In this document: piece after piece, positions 2,907-39,688 of the stretch | Numbering within the stretch: position 1 is the first letter of the stretch | Layout: every line of letters starts with the position of its first letter | Origin: a virus | Taxonomy: Duplodnaviria; Heunggongvirae; Uroviricota; Caudoviricetes | DNA length: 42,443 nucleotides | Direction: 5' to 3' (one strand) | IMG/VR virus record: IMGVR_UViG_3300033553_000816 | Notes under the pieces: model-generated | Told to the model about the DNA's origin: nothing | What the model saw: only the letters and a program-made list of their open reading frames with translations | The model's database searches: none | Position numbers and translations under genes: made by a program

Positions 2907-3425
2907 ATGGATAATAAAGACACTGAACGTTCTAAAACACGTGACATGATGATGGCTCAACGCTGGAATGATTTCCAGCCTATGCGATATTTAGTTAACT
3001 CTGCTGCCATGAGCCTCTCCGCTATTGCTGTGGCATTAGCCCCTTCAGTTCTTTTCAACACTTATTCTTTCTTCACAGGTGTACTGTTCGGTTTGATCTT
3101 TGCGTTACTTCTAACTAGAGCTAAAGGGCTAATTGTGAAAAGAAAAAACGAGTCAGATGGCGTTGTTAAACGAAACCAAGAGATATTAGCTTCCTTGGGT
3201 AAATATACAGACAACAACGATTTAGCTCTCGCTATGGCAGTCGCAGCAGCTTCAGAGGGCTACATAGACATTTACAGTAAAACCCTTGAAGATAGCCTCA
3301 ACAGTATTAGAGATTGGCATCGTAAGAGCGAGAAGTTCAAATTAAAATCCGATTGCTCTAAAGGGCACAGCGCCGTATGTAAACACCGTAGCCCTGAGCT
3401 TTACCAGTGGTTAACAGAAAAATAA
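2907..3425 (+). CDS. Membrane protein (2 TM)
   Basis: RBS AAGGAG; two hydrophobic segments. Confidence 0.7.
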   Translation: MDNKDTERSKTRDMMMAQRWNDFQPMRYLVNSAAMSLSAIAVALAPSVLFNTYSFFTGVLFGLIFALLLTRAKGLIVKRKNESDGVVKRNQEILASLGKYTDNNDLALAMAVAAASEGYIDIYSKTLEDSLNSIRDWHRKSEKFKLKSDCSKGHSAVCKHRSPELYQWLTEK

Positions 3426-11555: not shown

Positions 11556-12870
11556 ATGAGAACACAAGCATTCAGGGTTAAGCGTTCCTCACTCGACTAT
11601 TCTGCGGCTGTCAACCAGATCACAGAAGCCCGTAGACTATACAACACTCTTATAGCTGTTTCCCGTGAGTCAAGGGCTATTTTTCTTAAACCAGGTTCGG
11701 ACACTCATATTAGTAAAGAACTGGGCTTGTTGGACTGGGTTGAGTCTCCTGGGTTTTTGGGGAATTTCGGTACGTTTGAGCGGATACGTAAAACCGTTGA
11801 GCAGGAACAAAACATTGTTTTGCCTCAGAAAGTAGCTCAGCATGTGGCTCGTGAAGTTGCGTTAGCTTGGAAAAGTTATTACGCGTTGAAGAAAGTTAAC
11901 CCAAAAGCTCAACCTCCGCGTTATAAACAAAAGTTTGGGCTTGTGCAGTACACGAAACAAGCCGTGAGTACGGTCAAAAACCCTGGTAAACTAACCCCAA
12001 CAGGCTGGTCACATGGGGTCCAACTCCCTGAGTATATTAACCCTATTCTTATTCAAGCCGCGAGACTAACATATAAGAACGGCGATGTATGGTTAGAAGT
12101 TATACACAAAACCCCGCACATAACCGATAAAAAAGCAGGTCGTTTTTCAGCAGCTATTGACCTGGGGGTTGATAACCTCGCTACCTTAATTGTTAACAAA
12201 CCGGGTTACAGGCCCAAAATTGTTGATGGGAAACACATCAAAAGTGTCAACCAGTTCGCTAACAAAGTTTCAGCTGAGTGGCGCACAAAACTAGATATCG
12301 AAGCTTTTAACATTTGGAACAAACTAGATGAAAAAGAGGAGGTGATGAAAGGAAAAATAGGGAGCAGGAAATTAGAACAATTCTGGGGTAAAAGAAACCG
12401 CAAAATCAACCATTACCTCCACTCGGCAAGTAACGCCATGATAAAAGAACTCATAGCAGCTGGAGTGGGCGGGTTAGTAATAGGTTGGAACGAGGGTTTC
12501 AAACAAAACTCAAACATAGGTAGGAAAAATAACCAGAGTTTTGTTCAAATCCCACACGCTAAATTCCGTGACATGCTCATATCAAAAGCCGAACGAGCAG
12601 GAATAAGCGTGACAATACAAGAAGAATCTTATACTAGTAAAGCCAGCTACCTCGACAAAGACACGATCCCGGTGTACGATAAAAAAAGTCAAGAATATAG
12701 TGGAGTTCTCAGGTAAACGTGTAAAAAGAGGGGAGTACGTCAGTGGCAAGGGTATAAAAATTCACGCTGATGTTAACGCAGCTTGGAATATTCTACAAAA
12801 AAGTAAACCCTCTAGAAGAGGGCCTAGGGGCATCATAGTTATGCCACAGAAGCTGAAGTTCGGTTTCTGA
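11556..12870 (+). pseudogene. tnpB: TnpB (zinc-finger-less SKASYLD/FSGKR type) with a 1-nt frameshift in an A7 run (12681-12687)
   Basis: AIDLGVDNL, VIGWNEGFKQ, EESYTSKASYLD. FSGKRVKRG..IHADVNAAWNI continues in the +1 frame to TGA 12870. Confidence 0.85.
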
Positions 12871-13291: not shown

Positions 13292-15244
13292 TCACACAGT
13301 CGCTTTGTGCTTCTTGAGGGCTTTCACCATGGCGTCGCCAACTACTGTTGCGAACTGGCTTGGCTGAGTGAGTTTCACGTAAGTAACACCCTTGTTGGAC
13401 GGGATGAAGTTGTAGCCACCATATCCGTTGCGGTCTTTGATGTGACAATACACTACTTGAACCCCAGAGGCAACGAACTTGTCAATAGCTTTGTTTGTAT
13501 CTGCGTGGTTGCTGAATTCTCCATCGGTGAGGATAACAAGCATACGTACACCTTCACTAGAGCACAGCTGTAGAGCACCTTCAAGGGCGTTAAGGGACGG
13601 AACAATAGCTGTCGTACCGCCACCGGAGCCGATAACGGGAACTTGAGAGGGGAACCGGCCAGGTGCGATGATTCCGCGTGTGCTGGTATCCCAAGCTACA
13701 CTCGCTACTTTACCTTTAACGGTACGAAGCGCCTGTGTGATGGACCAACTGAAAGCGGAGATATCACGCACCCATGCTCCTAGTGAGCCGGAAACGTCGA
13801 ATGAGATACCGAGTGTAATGGGAGGTTGGTCCGTTACACGCCTGCTGGTTCGGGTCCAAGGGGTTGCTGTAATTTCTGTTTTACGGGCGATTTGTGAATC
13901 CCTGCGCATAATTTCGCTTGCCCGTACTTTACCTGGTGGCATATCAGTGCGGCGCTTAGAGCGAGCAACATCACGGTATTGGGCTTTGCGGAGCTTGTTT
14001 GTGATACCGCGTGCGTAAGCTAGGTCTTGAGCAGTGGGTGTAATGTACTTGATATCTAGGTTGCTGGAACCCCAGCCCCAACCGCTACCGCCGCGCTTAC
14101 CTTCAATTTGAACGTCACCGTCAGGGAACACTTCATTAGCGGCGTTTTTAGCGGTGGCACGATCACGTTCCTCAGCGAGACGCTTCTTCAGTGCCTTTTC
14201 GAAAGGGTTACCGTTATCGCCAGAGCCGTTAGCGGCTTCTTCTGCCACATCTTCCTTAGCCGCTTCCTTGGAAGCTTCCATGGCATCCCGAAGGGCATCA
14301 CCGAGCGGGTCATCAGACTTTTCTTCACTGTCAGATGTATCTGAACCACTTGAAGGCTGACTTGCGCCTGGTTGACCTGCGCCGTTGGAAGGTTGAGAGC
14401 CCTGTCCGGTGCTTTCTCCTTCTTCCGCGTAGTCAGCACCACAGCTGAACCCCATGCTAGGCATTTCAGGGGTTTGAACGTCGTTCTCTTCAAGGAGCTT
14501 AGCGAAACGACTAGCGACATCAAGCATCTCTTCGAAGTTACCATCTTCAACTTCATGAGCTTCAGACCAAAGGTCACTCATCTTTTCAAGCAGGTCTGAA
14601 CCTAAAGAATCTTCAACTTCTTCGCGGATGGTCTTAAAATCATCAGCTTCAAGAGTCCCGGCGTCAACACGTGCGAGGATAAGGACAGCAATACGCGCAT
14701 TAGCGTACTTATTGGACGCGTCAGCATCCATTGTCTCTGACTTTCCTTCAAGCACAACGTTCTTCACGAGTGAGCTGATTGAACCACGGAGCATATCGCG
14801 CTCCCTGGGACGACGGTCAATCAACATCTTCTCAATTCGGGATTCTTCAAGAGCCATGAACCATTCCATGGTCTTAGCGTCCTTTTGGAGTTCCTTACGG
14901 CGCTCCGGCATTGAAATATCAAAAGCATCGGTGTGAGCTGCGTGAGCCGCTTCGTGAGCGGCAACACCAATAAGGTCGATGTACTTGATACGGTCATAAT
15001 CATCAAACGGGTCGATGGTTGTAGGGTCATCATCGGCGGTCATGAATTTAGAAGCGTCAAAGTAAACGGCTGCTTGTTCACTAATGAAGTAACCTGCGGC
15101 CACGTGAGCTTTTCCGTTAACATCCGTGTGCGGGGTGACGTTAGCAACCAGGTCATCCCTGTTGGCAATGAAGTTGATAAAACCGTTAAGGTTAGAGGCG
15201 AGCTTCAGCCAATCCTTATTGTGAACATCTCGGTAATCAGTCAT
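13292..15244 (-). CDS. Metallopeptidase (HExxH)-linker-vWA protein (MoxR partner, CobT-like architecture)
   Basis: AAHEAAH and LEESRIE; acidic Ser/Gly linker; MIDAS DVSGS; LTDGE. Confidence 0.85.
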   Translation of the reverse strand: MTDYRDVHNKDWLKLASNLNGFINFIANRDDLVANVTPHTDVNGKAHVAAGYFISEQAAVYFDASKFMTADDDPTTIDPFDDYDRIKYIDLIGVAAHEAAHAAHTDAFDISMPERRKELQKDAKTMEWFMALEESRIEKMLIDRRPRERDMLRGSISSLVKNVVLEGKSETMDADASNKYANARIAVLILARVDAGTLEADDFKTIREEVEDSLGSDLLEKMSDLWSEAHEVEDGNFEEMLDVASRFAKLLEENDVQTPEMPSMGFSCGADYAEEGESTGQGSQPSNGAGQPGASQPSSGSDTSDSEEKSDDPLGDALRDAMEASKEAAKEDVAEEAANGSGDNGNPFEKALKKRLAEERDRATAKNAANEVFPDGDVQIEGKRGGSGWGWGSSNLDIKYITPTAQDLAYARGITNKLRKAQYRDVARSKRRTDMPPGKVRASEIMRRDSQIARKTEITATPWTRTSRRVTDQPPITLGISFDVSGSLGAWVRDISAFSWSITQALRTVKGKVASVAWDTSTRGIIAPGRFPSQVPVIGSGGGTTAIVPSLNALEGALQLCSSEGVRMLVILTDGEFSNHADTNKAIDKFVASGVQVVYCHIKDRNGYGGYNFIPSNKGVTYVKLTQPSQFATVVGDAMVKALKKHKATV

Positions 15245-15343
15245 GTTTCCCTTTCATGCCTTTAGGTTTACTAATTTACCATAGAACAGGTGTGAAAGCA
15301 ACTGTTTGTACATTTTAATGGAAACTATTTTTCACGGTTGACA

Positions 15344-15367
15344 AAACATTGGTGTTTAAGCTATAGT
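15344..15367 (+). promoter_or_regulatory. Spacer and -10 of promoter TTGACA(15338)-18-TATAGT
   Basis: Consensus boxes upstream of the AAA gene. Confidence 0.7.
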
Positions 15368-15399
15368 TGTGTTTATCAGAAAGACACGGAAGGGAAAAC

Positions 15400-16815
15400 A
15401 TGTCTACTCTTAAACCAACTATCGGGGTTATTCTTCGAGACCCACAGTCAGCAACTGAGAAGTTCTACTCTATTGTCCTCACTTCAGAGGGGGAGATTGT
15501 CACTTCGCATGGTCAAGGTCAGCTTTCCAGGTATGCCGCTCGTGCTCGCATGACAGAGCAGATCAGGAGTACTCAGAGTAAAGCTGGGATGGTCAAAGTG
15601 TTCAACAATCGCGTCCTCACTAAGCGTAAGCGCGGTTACACGCAGGTTGAAATTCCTATGGTCAACTTCTCCACTAGTGGTGTTGTGGCCAGCGATATTA
15701 TGGCCGATTTTCTTAAGTCCACTGGTTTTAAGAAAGTTGAGAACGCTAAGCGTTGGATTAAAGAAAATGAGGTTATTAGTAACTTCGTTGACGCCGCGTC
15801 CAGCGGTAAGGAAACCTTTAGGATGAGCGGCCCTGAGGTTGTTCTTCTTCGCCATAACTCAACCATGCGTAACGCAGATAAGGAGAACGGCAACAGCACA
15901 CCCGCTGTTAAGGACACTTCAGCTAAGACAAACTCTGTTAAATCAAGTGTTGACACTATTGAGAAGGGCCTCGCTGGTCTTAGAATTTCAGGTGCCCTCA
16001 TCCGACCTAACGGAGAGTCTTACACGCCTCGTTCAGTTGGTGCCCATCACGACGTGGCTCTTCTTCGCCACCTGTACAAGTCAAACATCGCTGTGCGGCT
16101 CCCTGGGCCTCCTGGGGCGGGTAAGACAGCACTTATCGAAGCTGCGTTCCCTGGCGCTATTACGGTCGCTGGACACGGAGATATGACTATTGATGATTTC
16201 GTTGGGACTGACCGTCCGGACACTAAGAGCCCAGGAGCTTGGGTGTGGATTGATGGTCCGCTGACAACTGCTATGAAAACCGGTAACGTCCTGTACGTCG
16301 ATGAGATTACCCGAGTACCCCAAGAAGTACTCGCTATCCTCTACTCTGTTATGGACGGTCGTAACGTTCTTCGTCTTGACCGACGACCGGACCTTCCTCC
16401 GGTGAAAGCCCAAGAGGGTTTCGGTGTCATCGCGGCATACAACCCTGATGTGTTTGGTGCTCGCCCTCTGGATGAAGCTCTCATGTCACGTTTCAAGGTT
16501 GCTATTGAAGTACGTACAGATTTCGACACCGCCAAGGTACTGAAGGTTCCTGCGAAGTTCATCACTGTTGCCCGTAACATGGCTACCCGTGACAAGAAGG
16601 ACCGTGAGAACGACGGACCTGGCCTGTGGGTACCGCAGATGCGTGAACTTCTGGCCGCACGTGACCTCATCAACGCAGGTGTGGGTGAGGATATCGCAAT
16701 CGGTACTCTCCTCGGAGCCTGCCCAGATGTTGACACCCTACCGGTCCTCATCCAAGTGGCATCGAACGTATTCGGAACTGACGTTAAGCTCCTTGCGCTC
16801 GGAAAGTCGGTTTAA
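15400..16815 (+). CDS. MoxR/CbbQ-type AAA+ ATPase with N-terminal WGR-like domain
   Basis: Walker A GPPGAGKT, Walker B LYVDEI, AYNP, RPLDEALMSRF; N-terminal EKFYSIV..V.SHG. RBS GGAAGGGAAAA precedes ATG 15400. Confidence 0.88.
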   Translation: MSTLKPTIGVILRDPQSATEKFYSIVLTSEGEIVTSHGQGQLSRYAARARMTEQIRSTQSKAGMVKVFNNRVLTKRKRGYTQVEIPMVNFSTSGVVASDIMADFLKSTGFKKVENAKRWIKENEVISNFVDAASSGKETFRMSGPEVVLLRHNSTMRNADKENGNSTPAVKDTSAKTNSVKSSVDTIEKGLAGLRISGALIRPNGESYTPRSVGAHHDVALLRHLYKSNIAVRLPGPPGAGKTALIEAAFPGAITVAGHGDMTIDDFVGTDRPDTKSPGAWVWIDGPLTTAMKTGNVLYVDEITRVPQEVLAILYSVMDGRNVLRLDRRPDLPPVKAQEGFGVIAAYNPDVFGARPLDEALMSRFKVAIEVRTDFDTAKVLKVPAKFITVARNMATRDKKDRENDGPGLWVPQMRELLAARDLINAGVGEDIAIGTLLGACPDVDTLPVLIQVASNVFGTDVKLLALGKSV

Positions 16816-16831
16816 CAACTGAATAGTTTAC

Positions 16832-16881
16832 CCAGCTGGGGCTTAACACCTTTTCCCTTCCCTTCCTTAAGCCCCAGCTGG
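16832..16881 (+). other. Perfect 15-bp hairpin with pyrimidine loop (terminator or 3' structured RNA)
   Basis: CCAGCTGGGGCTTAA / TTAAGCCCCAGCTGG; loop CACCTTTTCCCTTCCCTTCC. Confidence 0.85.
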
Positions 16882-16914
16882 TTTCTTAAAAAAATAATAG
16901 AATAAGTTTTAACT

Positions 16915-16979
16915 GACAGATAACCATGGCAGCTCGCGCGCCCTTCCCTTCCCGTAGCGAGCTGCCATGGTTATTTGTT
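16915..16979 (+). other. Perfect 18-bp hairpin (extendable to ~23 bp) with CCCTTCCCTTCC loop
   Basis: ATAACCATGGCAGCTCGC / GCGAGCTGCCATGGTTAT. Confidence 0.85.
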
Positions 16980-17004
16980 AACTCCGACACGATAGAGAAC
17001 TATT

Positions 17005-17232
17005 ATGAAAGAATTAAACGGAACTGAATATTCTGACCTCGAATATATGATAACTTTTCAGAAAGGCATTCACATTCTTGCGCGCAAAAGGATGAAGAAA
17101 ATCTATCAGGAGCAAGGTAAGAAAGAGATGCTTGAAGCTTATAATGACGCTGTGAAACGAAACATGATCAGCGATGACATAAAAGAAGAGCTACATAAGC
17201 TTATAGATACAGAAGATCACAGCTGGAATTAG
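17005..17232 (+). CDS. Small hypothetical protein
   Basis: 75-aa ORF. Confidence 0.6.
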   Translation: MKELNGTEYSDLEYMITFQKGIHILARKRMKKIYQEQGKKEMLEAYNDAVKRNMISDDIKEELHKLIDTEDHSWN

Positions 17233-17261
17233 ATATAACAACTTTAGGTTGATAAATTATT

Positions 17262-17384
17262 ATGGGCAAGAAAGAGAAAAGCGATTTAGCCGCTAGCATG
17301 AGATTAGATGATGATGGTGCACCTATCGCTGAAGACAGCGTTAACGCTGACCCTGAAGCTGAAAGTACTGTAACTAACCTTTAG
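17262..17384 (+). CDS. 40-aa acidic peptide (not in ORF track)
   Basis: MGKKEKSDLAASMRLDDDGAPIAEDSVNADPEAESTVTNL*; fills the intergenic gap. Confidence 0.4.
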   Translation: MGKKEKSDLAASMRLDDDGAPIAEDSVNADPEAESTVTNL

Positions 17385-18637
17385 GCGAGAACCTCAGTTA
17401 AGGTTCGCTTATCCCCTAATCTAGGACCATGGGACTCAATCATAATTCTTTTACCTGTAGTACTCTCAATAACCGATTTAAGGGCATCTAGATCTTTCAC
17501 TTTAATTGTTTCATAATCAGTAGCTGTTTTAAGCGCATGGTTATATGCTTCCATCAGGTCAAGCTCATCTTCACCTGCTGGCGTGAGAGCAACTTTGCTT
17601 TTAGCTAATTCCGTGACAAGGTAGTCGCAGTGTGTTAAAGCGATACTATCTATCTCCCCGTCAACTTCAACAGCGTATTTTAGGGTGGTTAGGTCTAGAT
17701 TACCTATACGAAAACTACCTTGCCATTCCCCGTCTTTGTTGTGGGCTTCCGGGAATTGAATAATAAATTCGTCATCTTGAATTTCTGTTGGAAAAGGACC
17801 GTAACCGTGACGAGTTCCGTATGTTCTTGTAATACCAATCACTTCTACATCATCACGACTGTAACCCGCTTCGTAAAGTAAAGTTAGCGCGTTCTTTGAC
17901 GTTGTTGTTGACCATGTTGTGTTCGGATGAAAACCGTGCCATTCGTCAAGAAGTATTCCTTGCGTGCCTTCGAATATTAGCTTATCTGATCGTGTTATGA
18001 AATCGCTTATAGTTTCGTCATCTATAATGGGAAAAGGATTGTAATTGTATGTTTCAATAAGCCCTTCGCATACTTCTTCTAAGTTGAACTCCATGTTAGG
18101 AAATTCCAATCTAACCCAATCATAGTATGCTGACAGTTTATCTAACAGTCTCTCCGGTTTGAGTATATCTCCGACAATAGGGGAGTCAGGCTCGAAAGGT
18201 TGCGTAGCGTACAGCATAGTTTCACCTATGCCATGTGCGCATGAACCGTGGGCTTCTAACCCACGAGCCCGTTCTCTTTGTCGGTTAGCTTCGCGGTGTA
18301 TCTCTGTTATCAGGAGTGCGTTCTCACTTACAAAGACATTACCCATCGGGTTGTATCCGATTTTACTTTCTAACACATCTGCTTCTAAAGCAAGAGACAA
18401 AGGGTTAACTAAGGTGAACCTGGATAGAATAGTAGCTACTCCTTGTAAAGTAGCGGACCCAAACTGCCTGAACGTATGATGAGTTCCGTCATCAAGTATT
18501 ACGTTATGAGCAGTTTGAGGCCCGCCGCTGAACTTTACAATAGCATCAGTTTTACCGTTAGTAGCTAAATAACTAGTTATAGTTCCCTTGCCTTCATCTC
18601 CGTAACCAAGTCCTACAACTATCTTATGTTCACTCAC
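17381..18637 (-). CDS. Adenylosuccinate synthetase-like protein (divergent PurA fold)
   Basis: GYGDEGKG, GGPQTAH, HGIG, FEGTQGILLD, TRHGYGPFPTE, FRIG.LD, SHGP. The TTGR aspartate loop is replaced. Confidence 0.9.
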   Translation of the reverse strand: MSEHKIVVGLGYGDEGKGTITSYLATNGKTDAIVKFSGGPQTAHNVILDDGTHHTFRQFGSATLQGVATILSRFTLVNPLSLALEADVLESKIGYNPMGNVFVSENALLITEIHREANRQRERARGLEAHGSCAHGIGETMLYATQPFEPDSPIVGDILKPERLLDKLSAYYDWVRLEFPNMEFNLEEVCEGLIETYNYNPFPIIDDETISDFITRSDKLIFEGTQGILLDEWHGFHPNTTWSTTTSKNALTLLYEAGYSRDDVEVIGITRTYGTRHGYGPFPTEIQDDEFIIQFPEAHNKDGEWQGSFRIGNLDLTTLKYAVEVDGEIDSIALTHCDYLVTELAKSKVALTPAGEDELDLMEAYNHALKTATDYETIKVKDLDALKSVIESTTGKRIMIESHGPRLGDKRTLTEVLA

Positions 18638-18685
18638 AGCCGGTTTCCTTTCCAGGGATATCTAAACGTATTCTACCATATTTTA

Positions 18686-19693
18686 TTACAACCTAGCAGC
18701 TCCTGGTCCAACTAGGTCAACATCAACCTCAGTAGCTGAGCGAGTTATGATATCTAAACCAGCTGTTGATTTCTTAACAGATTCTATAGTGCGACGGTCC
18801 ACACCCATATCAGCTAAGTCCTCTGTACTGTCATCCAAATCGATGTTACCTTCTAGTAGACCAATTGCGACACCAATTGTTTCTGAGATGGCCTCTACGT
18901 CTTGGATTACGAGTACGTGGTCTTTACCGAAGAGGTTCTCATAGAATTCCTTGGATTTCTGCATAGCAGCTGAAGCGTTGTCGATAAGTAGAATATACGT
19001 ATCCCACTTCTCTTGAACTGTTTTAGCTAACCCTTTAGCGGTGATGTCGCCTTGGACTTCATCAACCCCGAGGTTCTCTTTAACGTGCTCTGGTCTAAGG
19101 TCAAGTGCTCTTTCATCAGCGATGAAGAAAGCGTAACCTTTTTTGTTTCTCTTCTCAAAAGCATCAGTGGAAGTGTGGTTAGCTAAGTAATACCAAGCTA
19201 AAGTCTGGGTTTCGCCCATATTTCCACCACCACCGCCTTCTAGGAAGAGGTTGTCCAGGTTGTCATCAATCCTGTTGTCAGATTCGAACTGGCTTAACTG
19301 TAACGGTACTCTGTCAACGTAAGCGTCACCGTACGCACCAATCATGATTTGAGGATCTTCAGCATAACCTTTCCTTACAAGCAAACCAAACAGTGTTGTT
19401 AATCTAGCCTGTACAGTACTTGGGATGCTACCCATTGAACCGGTGGCGTCGAACATTACGCAAATAGGTAATGAGTTCGGGTGTTCATCACTGTCACGAG
19501 ATTCTTTCATGACCTGCCCGGCGTATGTTGACGTGTCACCAGCTTTTTTCTTAGGGTCAAGATCTTCGTGGGATTTCCATGAGGACCTTCCTGCTGATCT
19601 TGTTGAGTGGGAGTAACCGAATGTCGCTCCCGAGGATACTCGTGCTCCTGCGGCACTAGCATATGTGTCTGCTGACCATGTTCCTGATCCCAT
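18686..19693 (-). CDS. vWA domain protein
   Basis: MFDATGSMG (MIDAS-like), AYGDAY.D..PLQ, EGGGGGN..E; RBS AGGAAG before ATG 19693. Confidence 0.82.
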   Translation of the reverse strand: MGSGTWSADTYASAAGARVSSGATFGYSHSTRSAGRSSWKSHEDLDPKKKAGDTSTYAGQVMKESRDSDEHPNSLPICVMFDATGSMGSIPSTVQARLTTLFGLLVRKGYAEDPQIMIGAYGDAYVDRVPLQLSQFESDNRIDDNLDNLFLEGGGGGNMGETQTLAWYYLANHTSTDAFEKRNKKGYAFFIADERALDLRPEHVKENLGVDEVQGDITAKGLAKTVQEKWDTYILLIDNASAAMQKSKEFYENLFGKDHVLVIQDVEAISETIGVAIGLLEGNIDLDDSTEDLADMGVDRRTIESVKKSTAGLDIITRSATEVDVDLVGPGAARL

Positions 19694-19793
19694 TGTAACC
19701 ACTTCCTAAAGTAATACTAAGATAGTCACTTTGACTATCTATAATAGAATATCGGAGGGTTAGACAAGTTTTTCTGAAAAAAGGAAAGAAAAG

Positions 19794-20852
19794 TTAACTA
19801 ATTTTCATTTCATGGAATCTAGGCGTCCCGTAAACCTCATATAACACTTCATTGAACTCATTGAGGAGAACAGCCGGGTGAGGAGTAGAGTACTTACATC
19901 CCTCAAAGAAAACAGCTAGTTTTTTAGGTAGCTCAGCGGATGAAACTTTCAACATGGTTTCTGCTGCCATCTTAATGTCTAAGTTGTAGTCAACAGCTTT
20001 CTTATTCAAACTAGCTTTAGTGTACATTCCCTTATGTTTACTATTAACGGCTTTGAGAGTATCACCAGCCTCAACGCTGTAATGCCAGTCTCTTAGTACT
20101 AACCCGTGCGCTTGAGGGTTAATTAGAATACTGTCCTCATTAACGTTGGCATGTACGAAACCCGTATCATAAGCGTTACCAATTGAAACCAGTAGGCGTT
20201 TGAAAATCCAAGCAACATCACGACCCTGTAAGTTGCTGTTAAAAATGTCTGCTACCTCTTTAAGGGAGAACCAATCACCTGCGAGTTTATTGTTAACAAA
20301 GCCGAAGTGTTCTTTACCTGAAATCTTAAATAAGCCCTTATCTACAACGTCAGGGTAGAAAGCAGCCAGCTTATCGTTATTTGCGATGATCTTCTTAAGG
20401 TTTTTGAAGCCATTCTCAACCAGGTCGTTATCCTTATGGTTAACAGGTAGGGACAAGAAACCCGTTCTAGTTACCTTTTCTTTATCTTTATATTCAACCT
20501 CAAAAGTCTTAACAACCTCATCATAAGACAGCTGCCCGTCTTTACTCAAAGCAACATAATGGTTCTTCTTTGTTGAGAAAACCAAAGGGGATGACTTCTT
20601 AGCTTTACTTTCACCCTTAGCCCCGCTTCCAGCTTCTAAAGACAACAGAAACTCATGGTACATACTAGTAAGCTTATTAAAAAGCGTGTTACCCTTGTTC
20701 TTCATACCCTCAGGCAGATAATCAGGGTGAACCGCTCGCGCTAACTTAAGGTAAGAGCGCTTAGCTTCTTTAGCTGTTGAAACAGTAAAAATGTCTTTAT
20801 ATTTTTTGGCCTCATCAACCAGCTTAACGTAATCTTCAGACTTATTTGCCAT
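19794..20852 (-). CDS. J-domain (HPD) fused to a kinase-like, probably pseudokinase, domain
   Basis: YLKLARAVHPD; GFVHANVNEDSILINPQAHGLVLRDWHYS resembles the catalytic loop and DFG region without the HxD Asp. Confidence 0.78.
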   Translation of the reverse strand: MANKSEDYVKLVDEAKKYKDIFTVSTAKEAKRSYLKLARAVHPDYLPEGMKNKGNTLFNKLTSMYHEFLLSLEAGSGAKGESKAKKSSPLVFSTKKNHYVALSKDGQLSYDEVVKTFEVEYKDKEKVTRTGFLSLPVNHKDNDLVENGFKNLKKIIANNDKLAAFYPDVVDKGLFKISGKEHFGFVNNKLAGDWFSLKEVADIFNSNLQGRDVAWIFKRLLVSIGNAYDTGFVHANVNEDSILINPQAHGLVLRDWHYSVEAGDTLKAVNSKHKGMYTKASLNKKAVDYNLDIKMAAETMLKVSSAELPKKLAVFFEGCKYSTPHPAVLLNEFNEVLYEVYGTPRFHEMKIS

Positions 20853-23958: not shown

Positions 23959-24009
23959 TAAGATAAGCAGGGCGGCGGTTCGCTGAGAGCTGTTACCCTG
24001 CTTATCTTA
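23959..24009 (+). terminator. Long hairpin after ORF 23475
   Basis: TAAGATAAGCAGGG / CCCTGCTTATCTTA (14 bp), extended by G:U pairs. Confidence 0.7.
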
Positions 24010-27311: not shown

Positions 27312-27740
27312 ATGAAGAACAGCTATGACGCTAATATCGAAGTTATCAACAAGCCCCTTTCCCGTAAGAAAGAGCAGTGGCTTAACCGCACTATCGGTTT
27401 AGCGTACAACTCTGACTGTAATCAGCGTCTCGGCGCGATCATCGTTAAGAGCGGAAGTTTACTTGCCACTGGTATCAACAGTATGCGTAACAACCCTAAT
27501 GATTTGTATTACGGTGGAACTTCTGTTCACGCTGAAATGGCGGCTCTTCGTGAGCTGCGCGGCCCGGACAACACTTATGCTTCCGCTAAGGGGGCAACTA
27601 TTTTTGTTGCTCGCATCTGGAAGAACGGAACCACCGCAAACGCCCGGCCTTGCGACAAGTGTTACAAAGCACTCAACGAAGCTGGTGTGAACACCATCAT
27701 TTACACTTCTGATAGTGAATTCCCGTCCGCTACTGTTTAA
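27312..27740 (+). CDS. Zinc-dependent deaminase (CDA/dCMP deaminase fold)
   Basis: SVHAEMAAL and ARPCDKC. Confidence 0.88.
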   Translation: MKNSYDANIEVINKPLSRKKEQWLNRTIGLAYNSDCNQRLGAIIVKSGSLLATGINSMRNNPNDLYYGGTSVHAEMAALRELRGPDNTYASAKGATIFVARIWKNGTTANARPCDKCYKALNEAGVNTIIYTSDSEFPSATV

Positions 27741-27816
27741 CGAAACGCGTTAAAAACACTTTTCCTCGCTAGATACTTATTAAGTTAATATTAGATAAGG
27801 AAAAGGTGTATACAGT

Positions 27817-28098
27817 ATGGTCAAACTTCATTTGTCACCTTTATATGAAAAGTCAGATCTAGTAGCAGATGACGGAAATTTGAGAATAATTTTCCACTCT
27901 AGTCAGAAAGACAACTACCGTGTTGTGTTCGCCCAGGAAGGGTTGAACACATACGCTGAAGTTAGTGTAATCTTAGACAGAGATGAGAGGAAATACATTT
28001 TTGTTGACGTTATTTTTAACAACACAACTTTAACGACGAATGATATCAAAGAAACTTTGAAAGAAATTAACACAAATTTCTTCAGGGTCTTCCCGTAA
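27817..28098 (+). CDS. Hypothetical protein
   Basis: 93-aa ORF with RBS. Confidence 0.6.
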   Translation: MVKLHLSPLYEKSDLVADDGNLRIIFHSSQKDNYRVVFAQEGLNTYAEVSVILDRDERKYIFVDVIFNNTTLTTNDIKETLKEINTNFFRVFP

Positions 28099-39502: not shown

Positions 39503-39646
39503 ATGAGCTCAATAGAAGACCGCTGGTTAACTAGCATAAAAGCTCTGTTCACACTGAAAAACGCAGGTGTAATAGAGGAACAAGATCTCGAAGAGTGTTT
39601 GAACCTTGTTGACAGTTATATAGAAAATAAGTACGGCAAACTATAG
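39503..39646 (+). CDS. 47-aa hypothetical protein (not in ORF track)
   Basis: RBS AAGGGGTG; MSSIEDRWL..KYGKL*. Confidence 0.55.
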   Translation: MSSIEDRWLTSIKALFTLKNAGVIEEQDLEECLNLVDSYIENKYGKL

Positions 39647-39688
39647 CACCCTGTTGCCGTACTTATTTTTGTTTAATAACTAGTTTTT

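Follow-up and report, generated by a model that had tools for sequence, protein, structure and literature searches.

Directly after the stop codon of a MoxR/CobS-like AAA+ ATPase gene on a phage-like contig stand two long hairpins with unrelated stems, whose apical loops carry the same pyrimidine-rich motif and are complementary to the ribosome site (SD) of that ATPase gene. The stretch of DNA that we analyzed, hereafter the window, is 42,443 nucleotides long (IMG/VR virus record IMGVR_UViG_3300033553_000816) and is part of a roughly 203-kb phage-like contig whose proteins match phage families. The observation is real and not due to chance. Tentatively, with a probability of about 0.45, we read the twin hairpins as a 3'-UTR element whose anti-SD loops would pair with the SD of the gene cassette that carries them, either in cis or as a processed fragment. 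The elements on which this reading turns are the following.

13292-15244, minus strand: divergent partner gene of 650 aa, described as vWA-type in an earlier note on this DNA.
15338-15367, plus strand: sigma-70-type promoter of the ATPase gene, TTGACA-18-TATAGT, with 11 of 12 matches.
15382-15405, plus strand: predicted small 5'-UTR hairpin (AGACA / UGUCU) in the minimum-free-energy fold, with the SD in its apical loop.
15388-15398, plus strand: SD of the ATPase gene, GGAAGGGAAAA, just 5' of the ATG at 15400; the proposed target of the loops.
15400-16815, plus strand: MoxR/CobS-like AAA+ ATPase gene of 471 aa, Pfam AAA_5 at 1e-19.
16832-16881, plus strand: hairpin 1, arms 16832-16846 / 16867-16881 with 15 of 15 Watson-Crick pairs, 20-nt loop CACCTTTTCCCTTCCCTTCC at 16847-16866.
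16882-16913, plus strand: A-rich spacer, core AAAAAATAATAGAATAA at 16889-16905.
16914-16980, plus strand: hairpin 2, core arms 16920-16937 / 16957-16974 with 18 of 18 pairs, 19-nt loop GCGCCCTTCCCTTCCCGTA at 16938-16956.

Twin hairpins and their complementarity to the ATPase ribosome site

Hairpin 1 is separated by 16 nt from the ATPase stop codon (16813-16815), and the core stem of hairpin 2 can be extended outward to 24 bp (16914-16937 / 16957-16980), including two plus-strand G.U pairs. A 180-nt plus strand spanning the region folded at -72.4 kcal/mol (z = -11.2 against shuffles), and the minus strand of the hairpin region also folds well (z = -5.0). The two stems are unrelated, with a longest common substring of 5 nt, and the loops share a word of 12 nt. 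The window contains two copies of the motif CCCTTCCCTTCC and no more, one in each loop (16855 and 16941); when up to three mismatches were allowed, the number of matches in the 42-kb window equaled the chance expectation and no further copy emerged. The sequence and the stem comparison thus agree with the earlier note, which had described a perfect 15-bp and a perfect 18-bp hairpin presenting an identical loop motif on unrelated stems. The loop of hairpin 1 is predicted to be unpaired with a probability of 0.999, and the SD-complementary words are unpaired at 0.97-1.0 in this loop and in both loops of a related locus, L010, described below. In loop 2 of the window the apical motif is unpaired in the minimum-energy fold, the probability of 0.07 obtained for this loop having been computed solely for a word that runs into the stem-proximal CG. 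A scan of 2.36 Mb of assorted DNA for loop words of at least 10 nt shared by neighboring hairpins with unrelated stems returned the window and L010 only.

Several other classes were examined for the motif and its hairpins. A low-complexity or chance repeat was ruled out, the motif being confined to the two loops, and the region does not behave as a REP- or MITE-like dispersed palindromic repeat, given that within the 42-kb window only hairpins 1 and 2 carry the motif. An Rfam scan of positions 15000-18000 with E values up to 10 gave two chance snoRNA matches elsewhere and no known RNA family, and a G-quadruplex or i-motif reading was dropped, the required runs being missing in L010. Downstream of the window hairpins come TTTCTT and TTATTTGTT.

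Each of the four stems, two in the window and two in L010, includes a palindromic, restriction-site-like word (CAGCTG, CCATGG, CCTGAGG and GCTCAGC; window 16833-16838 and 16925-16930, L010 4629-4635 and 4706-4712), for which the rough chance is below 1%. The spacer core is identical to that of L010 (4676-4692) at 16 of 17 positions; it can be parsed as four A-R-N triplets, a kind of motif that the distal face of Hfq binds, with the sole change at an N position. Intergenic regions of the window hold two more perfect hairpins with long stems, at 23959-24009 (14 bp, 23-nt loop) and 39624-39669 (16 bp, 14-nt loop), both with loops unrelated to the CU motif.

Loop 1 contains the word TTTTCCCTTCC (16851-16861), the exact 11-nt reverse complement of the ATPase SD, which bears out what the earlier note had proposed for this pair of sites. 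Over both strands of the window (84.9 kb), no other complement of loop 1 is as long as the ATPase SD, and the longest complement of loop 2 (9 nt) is the ATPase SD too. Composition-preserving shuffles of the window loops matched their own 5' UTR at equal length with a frequency of 0.002 for loop 1 and 0.007 for loop 2, and shuffled L010 loops reached the match to their own SD at 0.004-0.007. Among 1249 unrelated upstream regions, none reached 11 nt with loop 1 of the window and four reached 9 nt with the L010 loop. Complementarity to the own SD therefore goes beyond chance in both loci (11 and 9 nt in the window, 9 nt in L010).

Purine-rich ribosome sites complement any CU-rich loop to some degree, and weaker matches are present elsewhere in the window. 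The word AAGGGAAA is found on the minus strand at 15246 and 1589; at 15246-15253 it forms the SD of the partner gene, an 8-nt complement of loop 1. The AAGGGAA-type ribosome site of a deaminase gene (27312-27740) is partly complementary to loop 1 as well, so that the partial matches to the ribosome sites of the vWA gene, ORF 1589 and the deaminase, which the earlier note had listed, were all recovered. Ribosome sites of the AGGGAA type are used by about 8 of the 65 window genes. The second-longest complement of loop 1 (10 nt, GGAAAAGGTG, 27799-27808) is the ribosome site of a 93-aa gene at 27817-28098.

Across the whole ATPase transcript of the window, the two best partners of the SD region are the two loops, at -17.7 and -16.1 kcal/mol, and opening the ATPase SD is calculated to cost 1.6-3.0 kcal/mol; the computed loop-SD duplexes range from -13.5 to -17.6 kcal/mol. 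When all 28-nt windows are ranked by their energy with loop 1, the window SD comes only about 10th. Several sites within the coding region of L010 equal or surpass the loops as partners of the SD region there. Own-locus duplexes are not better in energy than cross-locus ones, and the L010 loops reach -16.6 kcal/mol with the window SD versus -13.5 kcal/mol with the SD of L010 itself. An 11-bp helix within a 20-nt hairpin loop is also topologically strained.

Since the listed TTG at 15367 overlaps the -10 box, the first start codon that the ATPase mRNA contains is the ATG at 15400; L010 has an ATPase promoter at the equivalent relative place (TTGACA-17-TATAGT). The L010 counterpart of the small 5' hairpin is a predicted CGGA/UCCG stem around AAGGAAA, at about 3104-3118. 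From these folding models we infer that both loci may present the SD on a 5' hairpin, with weak stems of 4-5 bp. In both loci the anti-SD word lies downstream of the stop codon on the same strand as its target SD, where it would belong to a 3' UTR if transcribed, and scans of the window and L010 found no promoter-like site between the ATPase stop and the hairpins. The ATPase itself matches PHROG families of ATPases and of 'porphyrin biosynthesis'. The partner gene has no Pfam match, and one of its remote homologs is named a VWA domain protein (PF05762). Upstream of the partner gene, the word GTTGCTTTC is common to the window (15290-15305, minus strand) and L010 (about 2975-2990, minus strand) and marks a conserved promoter-like site of that gene, TTGCTT-17-TAAATT in the window, with TAATGT in L010.

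A related locus and a mobile cassette

Among 5.8 billion protein clusters searched, the only close relative of both proteins was found on an ENA metagenome contig, L010, with 49% identity for the ATPase and 47% for the partner. Its twin hairpins begin 12 nt past the ATPase stop and lie in the orientation of the gene, as in the window. Their stems are unrelated, one of 15 bp and one of 13 bp that extends to 15 bp with a U.G pair, and their loops contain an identical 22-nt word, AACCCTTCCAATTCCTTTCCCG; across both loci the loops measure 19-27 nt. L010 hairpin 1 is followed by six A (AAAAAA), not T. When hairpin 1 of the window was compared with that of L010, 9 of 15 stem positions aligned and six pairs were changed on both sides, while none of the 13 pairs present in both was broken.

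The L010 loops find their unique longest complement within the 10.6-kb locus in the ATPase SD, GGAAAGGAA, whose 3' end is 7 nt upstream of the ATG. Set against the window, where SD and loop read GGAAGGGAA and TTCCCTTCC, the L010 pair (GGAAAGGAA and TTCCTTTCC) differs by one compensatory change from G:C to A:U; this double change is visible in all four loops, as a covariation drawn from two loci and a single compensatory event. The earlier note had named conservation of the loops in related genomes as a check of its proposal, and L010 answers it with twin hairpins on different stems, identical SD-complementary loops and the compensatory change. In the L010 5' UTR there is also a second element, a distal GGAAGG, and the CCTTCC half of the longer L010 loops matches it.

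More distant relatives look different. We compared eight further ATPase loci (L011-L015 and L347-L349) with identities of at most 46%. Ordinary short-loop, terminator-like hairpins follow the gene in six of the eight, L013 has a weak fold only and a converging gene 40 nt on, and the L348 contig stops 41 nt past the ATPase stop codon. The twin-loop element was not found in ATPase homologs at or below 46% identity, and because these homologs lack it, the protein pair can work without the element. No protein relatives of the cassette were detected in IMG/VR. Scans for the twin-loop pattern in IMG/VR, JGI metagenomes and GTDB genomes, filtered for hairpin context, gave only tandem or low-complexity repeats among the matches listed, and a pattern that included the A-rich spacer core gave nothing in JGI metagenomes. 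The window had no nucleotide match in the phage collection. A contig of 10 kb assembled independently (L009, Logan contig from run SRR13628066, 1-9969) has a hairpin region identical to that of the window over 231 aligned nt, encodes an identical ATPase protein and ends inside the partner gene.

The window and L010 contigs have nothing in common except the gene pair and the hairpins. This shared segment (13292-16980 in the window, 1058-4765 in L010) has a GC content of 50-57% versus 40-44% in the flanks, and GC drops right after hairpin 2 in both loci. Because a GC-rich pair is common to otherwise unrelated, AT-richer contigs, we regard the gene pair as a horizontally moved cassette. Directly left of the cassette region in the window is a TnpB-type gene (11556-12716; OrfB_IS605 and the start of a Cas12f-like TNB domain) with a 10-bp stem and 24-nt loop at 12502-12545 within its 3' part; this gene has no counterpart in L010, and TnpB genes are frequent in the window phage. 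To the right, a converging three-gene block (17381-20852) begins with a PurA-like gene that matches Adenylsucc_synt and PHROG 1211 ('2-aminooxy adenylosuccinate synthetase'). The nearest phage relatives of this flanking gene, 35-42% identical, are too distant to fix the insertion site of the cassette.

Possible roles of the twin hairpins

Taken by itself, the sequence match fits loops on the plus strand, which would be complementary to the SD, and loops on the minus strand, which would be identical to it. Several features favor a plus-strand RNA, namely the 3' UTR of the ATPase mRNA: the hairpins have a fixed position and orientation just after the stop, a strong, conserved promoter with 11 of 12 matches drives that strand, and the non-Watson-Crick stem positions are mostly G.U on the plus strand (three or four versus one). 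An anti-ribosome-site role of such an RNA is further favored because L010 retains SD-complementary twin loops with a compensatory change. What we infer from this pattern is that the plus strand is transcribed through the element, that the loops pair in vivo, and in which direction the effect goes. The proposal of the earlier note, a 3'-UTR or processed small RNA acting against ribosome sites, accordingly gains from the conservation in L010; it is weakened by the homologs at or below 46% identity that do without the element and by own-locus pairing energies that are not superior.

In the reading that we prefer, the twin hairpins would form the untranslated 3' end of the mRNA of the ATPase, within a mobile two-gene cassette. 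Their long perfect stems would make and shield the mRNA 3' end, and each stem would keep a pyrimidine loop of 19-20 nt open as an anti-SD sequence, available for pairing with the ATPase mRNA at its GGAAGGGAA-type SD. This might happen in cis through a 5'-3' contact, possibly a loop-loop contact with the small SD-presenting 5' hairpin; such a start is plausible because, in the predicted folds of both loci, a small 5' hairpin carries the SD in its apical loop. Pairing might also happen in trans, after a stable 3' fragment has accumulated. Weaker pairing would be possible with the SD of the partner gene (8 nt) and with other AAGGGAA-type sites of the phage, e.g., that of the deaminase at 27312. 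The expected outcome is lowered translation, altered mRNA decay, or both, and with it a dosing of the ATPase and its partner. A more ambitious version is conceivable, although we find it doubtful: the twin-hairpin 3' end might be cut off as a stable small RNA and serve as a portable governor, its loops kissing the 5' hairpins that present the SDs of the two divergent cassette mRNAs, as well as other AAGGGAA-type phage sites such as that of the deaminase, so that ATPase and partner would be dosed wherever the cassette lands, with loops and SDs co-evolving as a private code.

A purely structural role is, in our estimate, unlikely. The hairpins would then be tandem, 3'-end-forming and exonuclease-blocking (or RNase III) structures, the CU-rich loops would be passive fillers kept alike by gene conversion or shared origin, and the SD match would have no function. 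Such a role would suit the location at the 3' end of a transcription unit, the TTTCTT and TTATTTGTT behind the window hairpins, the single strong hairpins at the equivalent place in more distant homologs, and the other long-stem, large-loop hairpins elsewhere in the phage. However, with loops of 19-27 nt and stems of 15-24 bp the hairpins do not resemble terminators and were not called by the terminator scan, L010 hairpin 1 runs into six A and not T, and passive loops would be expected neither to keep a common sequence inside a locus (12 nt in the window, 22 nt in L010) when the stems have diverged fully nor to follow the SD through a compensatory change. A loop repeated unchanged on unrelated stems is also the classic signature of loop-specific protein operators, and the loops have changed in concert between the loci; a dimeric or two-site RNA-binding protein might therefore read the CCCUUCC..UUCC loops as twin binding sites, with the loop co-evolving with the protein. 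The candidates would be a host KH, S1, cold-shock or Rho-type pyrimidine binder, or the ATPase of the cassette itself, whose residues 14-82 resemble an N-terminal WGR domain weakly and below threshold (E = 0.053). One relative has the WGR family in its precomputed Pfam list, and WGR is treated as a nucleic-acid-binding domain in the literature (PMC7824862). We hold protein sites to be quite unlikely: they leave the complementarity to the own SD in both loci unexplained, no known binding motif was matched, and the WGR match falls below threshold.

It is highly improbable that the minus strand is the active one. An antisense RNA would show SD-identical loops, GGAAGGGAAGGG, and could act as a decoy for the 30S subunit or for a CsrA-like repressor that binds the ribosome sites of the cassette. 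Being the same match, SD identity is as strong as complementarity, each loop would offer 2-3 GGA motifs, with several per loop in both loci, the strand folds well, as noted (z = -5.0), and at a distance of 25 nt from hairpin 2 of L010 it bears a weak promoter-like sequence (9 of 12 matches, extended TG). Yet no promoter is conserved on that strand and none lies near the window hairpins, most wobble positions would turn into A.C mismatches, the fixed position and orientation just past the stop fit a 3' UTR, and there is no Rfam match to the CsrB/Rsm families. Small minus-strand reading frames that start in the loops were set aside, since, read by eye, they are not conserved in L010. The least likely reading of all places the function in the DNA: the hairpins would delimit the cassette on its right and, in single-stranded or cruciform form, serve as a recombination, nicking or replication signal for its movement. 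For this speak the restriction of what the two otherwise unrelated contigs share to two genes and the hairpins, the fall in GC right after hairpin 2 in both loci, the perfect Watson-Crick stems with a palindromic site in each, and the abundance of TnpB genes in the phage. But the hairpins are adjacent and flank nothing, no matching structure is found at the other edge, the cassette has no recombinase or HUH gene, the left TnpB is absent from L010, and a DNA signal would not need complementarity to the SD. A more specific version, in which the hairpins are IS200/IS605-like transposon ends, was dropped, as they are adjacent and the nearby TnpB lies outside the shared cassette.

If pairing of the loops with the SD holds true, the locus would be a clean natural case of duplicated anti-ribosome-site loops in a 3' UTR that travel with a mobile phage gene pair, and the few proven bacterial cases of 5'-3' UTR pairing (icaR, hbs) would be extended to phage cassettes. 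It would also constitute a compact, transferable module for tuning translation. The window and L010 form a ready-made natural compensatory pair (G:C versus A:U), which makes the pairing idea directly testable.

Comparison with known RNA elements

Intrinsic and tandem terminators resemble the element in their place at the end of a transcription unit, in their strong GC-containing stems and in the weak T runs that follow the window hairpins. Unlike their loops of 3-8 nt, those of the twin hairpins measure 19-27 nt, on stems of 15-24 bp, and an A run follows L010 hairpin 1. Terminators need no conserved loop, whereas the loop sequence of the twin hairpins is conserved within each locus. Intrinsic terminators were rejected as a class: the short loop and the T run right after a GC-rich stem are lacking, and the scans did not call the sites. 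CsrB/RsmZ sponges offer a parallel for the minus strand, in whose loops several GGA motifs would appear, with the sequence of the SDs in the regulated mRNAs. The element differs from them in having two hairpins only, no Rfam match, no conserved minus-strand promoter and wobbles that favor the plus strand; although GGA motifs are present, a sponge of the CsrB/Rsm type was rejected for lack of a minus-strand transcription unit of its own and of a family model match.

The nearest parallels are RNAs that act on ribosome sites. In PMC2837412 and PMC6158497, loops 7, 13 and 14 of RNAIII and the duplicated motifs of RsaE/RoxS are described as identical C-rich loops that target SDs. The motif CCCTTCCCTTCC, C-rich and repeated unpaired in both window loops, follows the same plan: a UCCC-containing C-rich motif recurs in loops that are unpaired and carried by unrelated stems, and the window loops resemble the RNAIII and RsaE/RoxS motifs, which target G-rich SDs, including by loop-loop contacts. 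Those RNAs are free-standing small RNAs with promoters of their own, unlike the window element, which has no promoter between the stop and hairpin 1 and no sequence or Rfam relation to them.

Pairing between the two ends of an mRNA has been described, in PMC12697547, for the icaR and hbs mRNAs; the same paper reports that distal, pyrimidine-rich anti-SD-like words of B. subtilis pair with the ribosome site and repress mRNAs. Staphylococcus aureus icaR (Ruiz de los Mozos 2013, cited in that paper) uses a single UCCCCUG motif. As in icaR and B. subtilis, a pyrimidine-rich anti-SD word in the 3' part of the mRNA complements the SD of the same mRNA, and a like effect on translation and decay would be expected. 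Unlike in icaR, the word is present twice in the window, each copy displayed by the apical loop of a long perfect hairpin, and the cassette that carries it is mobile and phage-borne. Control by 3'-UTR anti-SD words and C-rich loops is thus of a known kind, and what is notable and novel here is the twin display on unrelated stems, carried by a mobile phage cassette.
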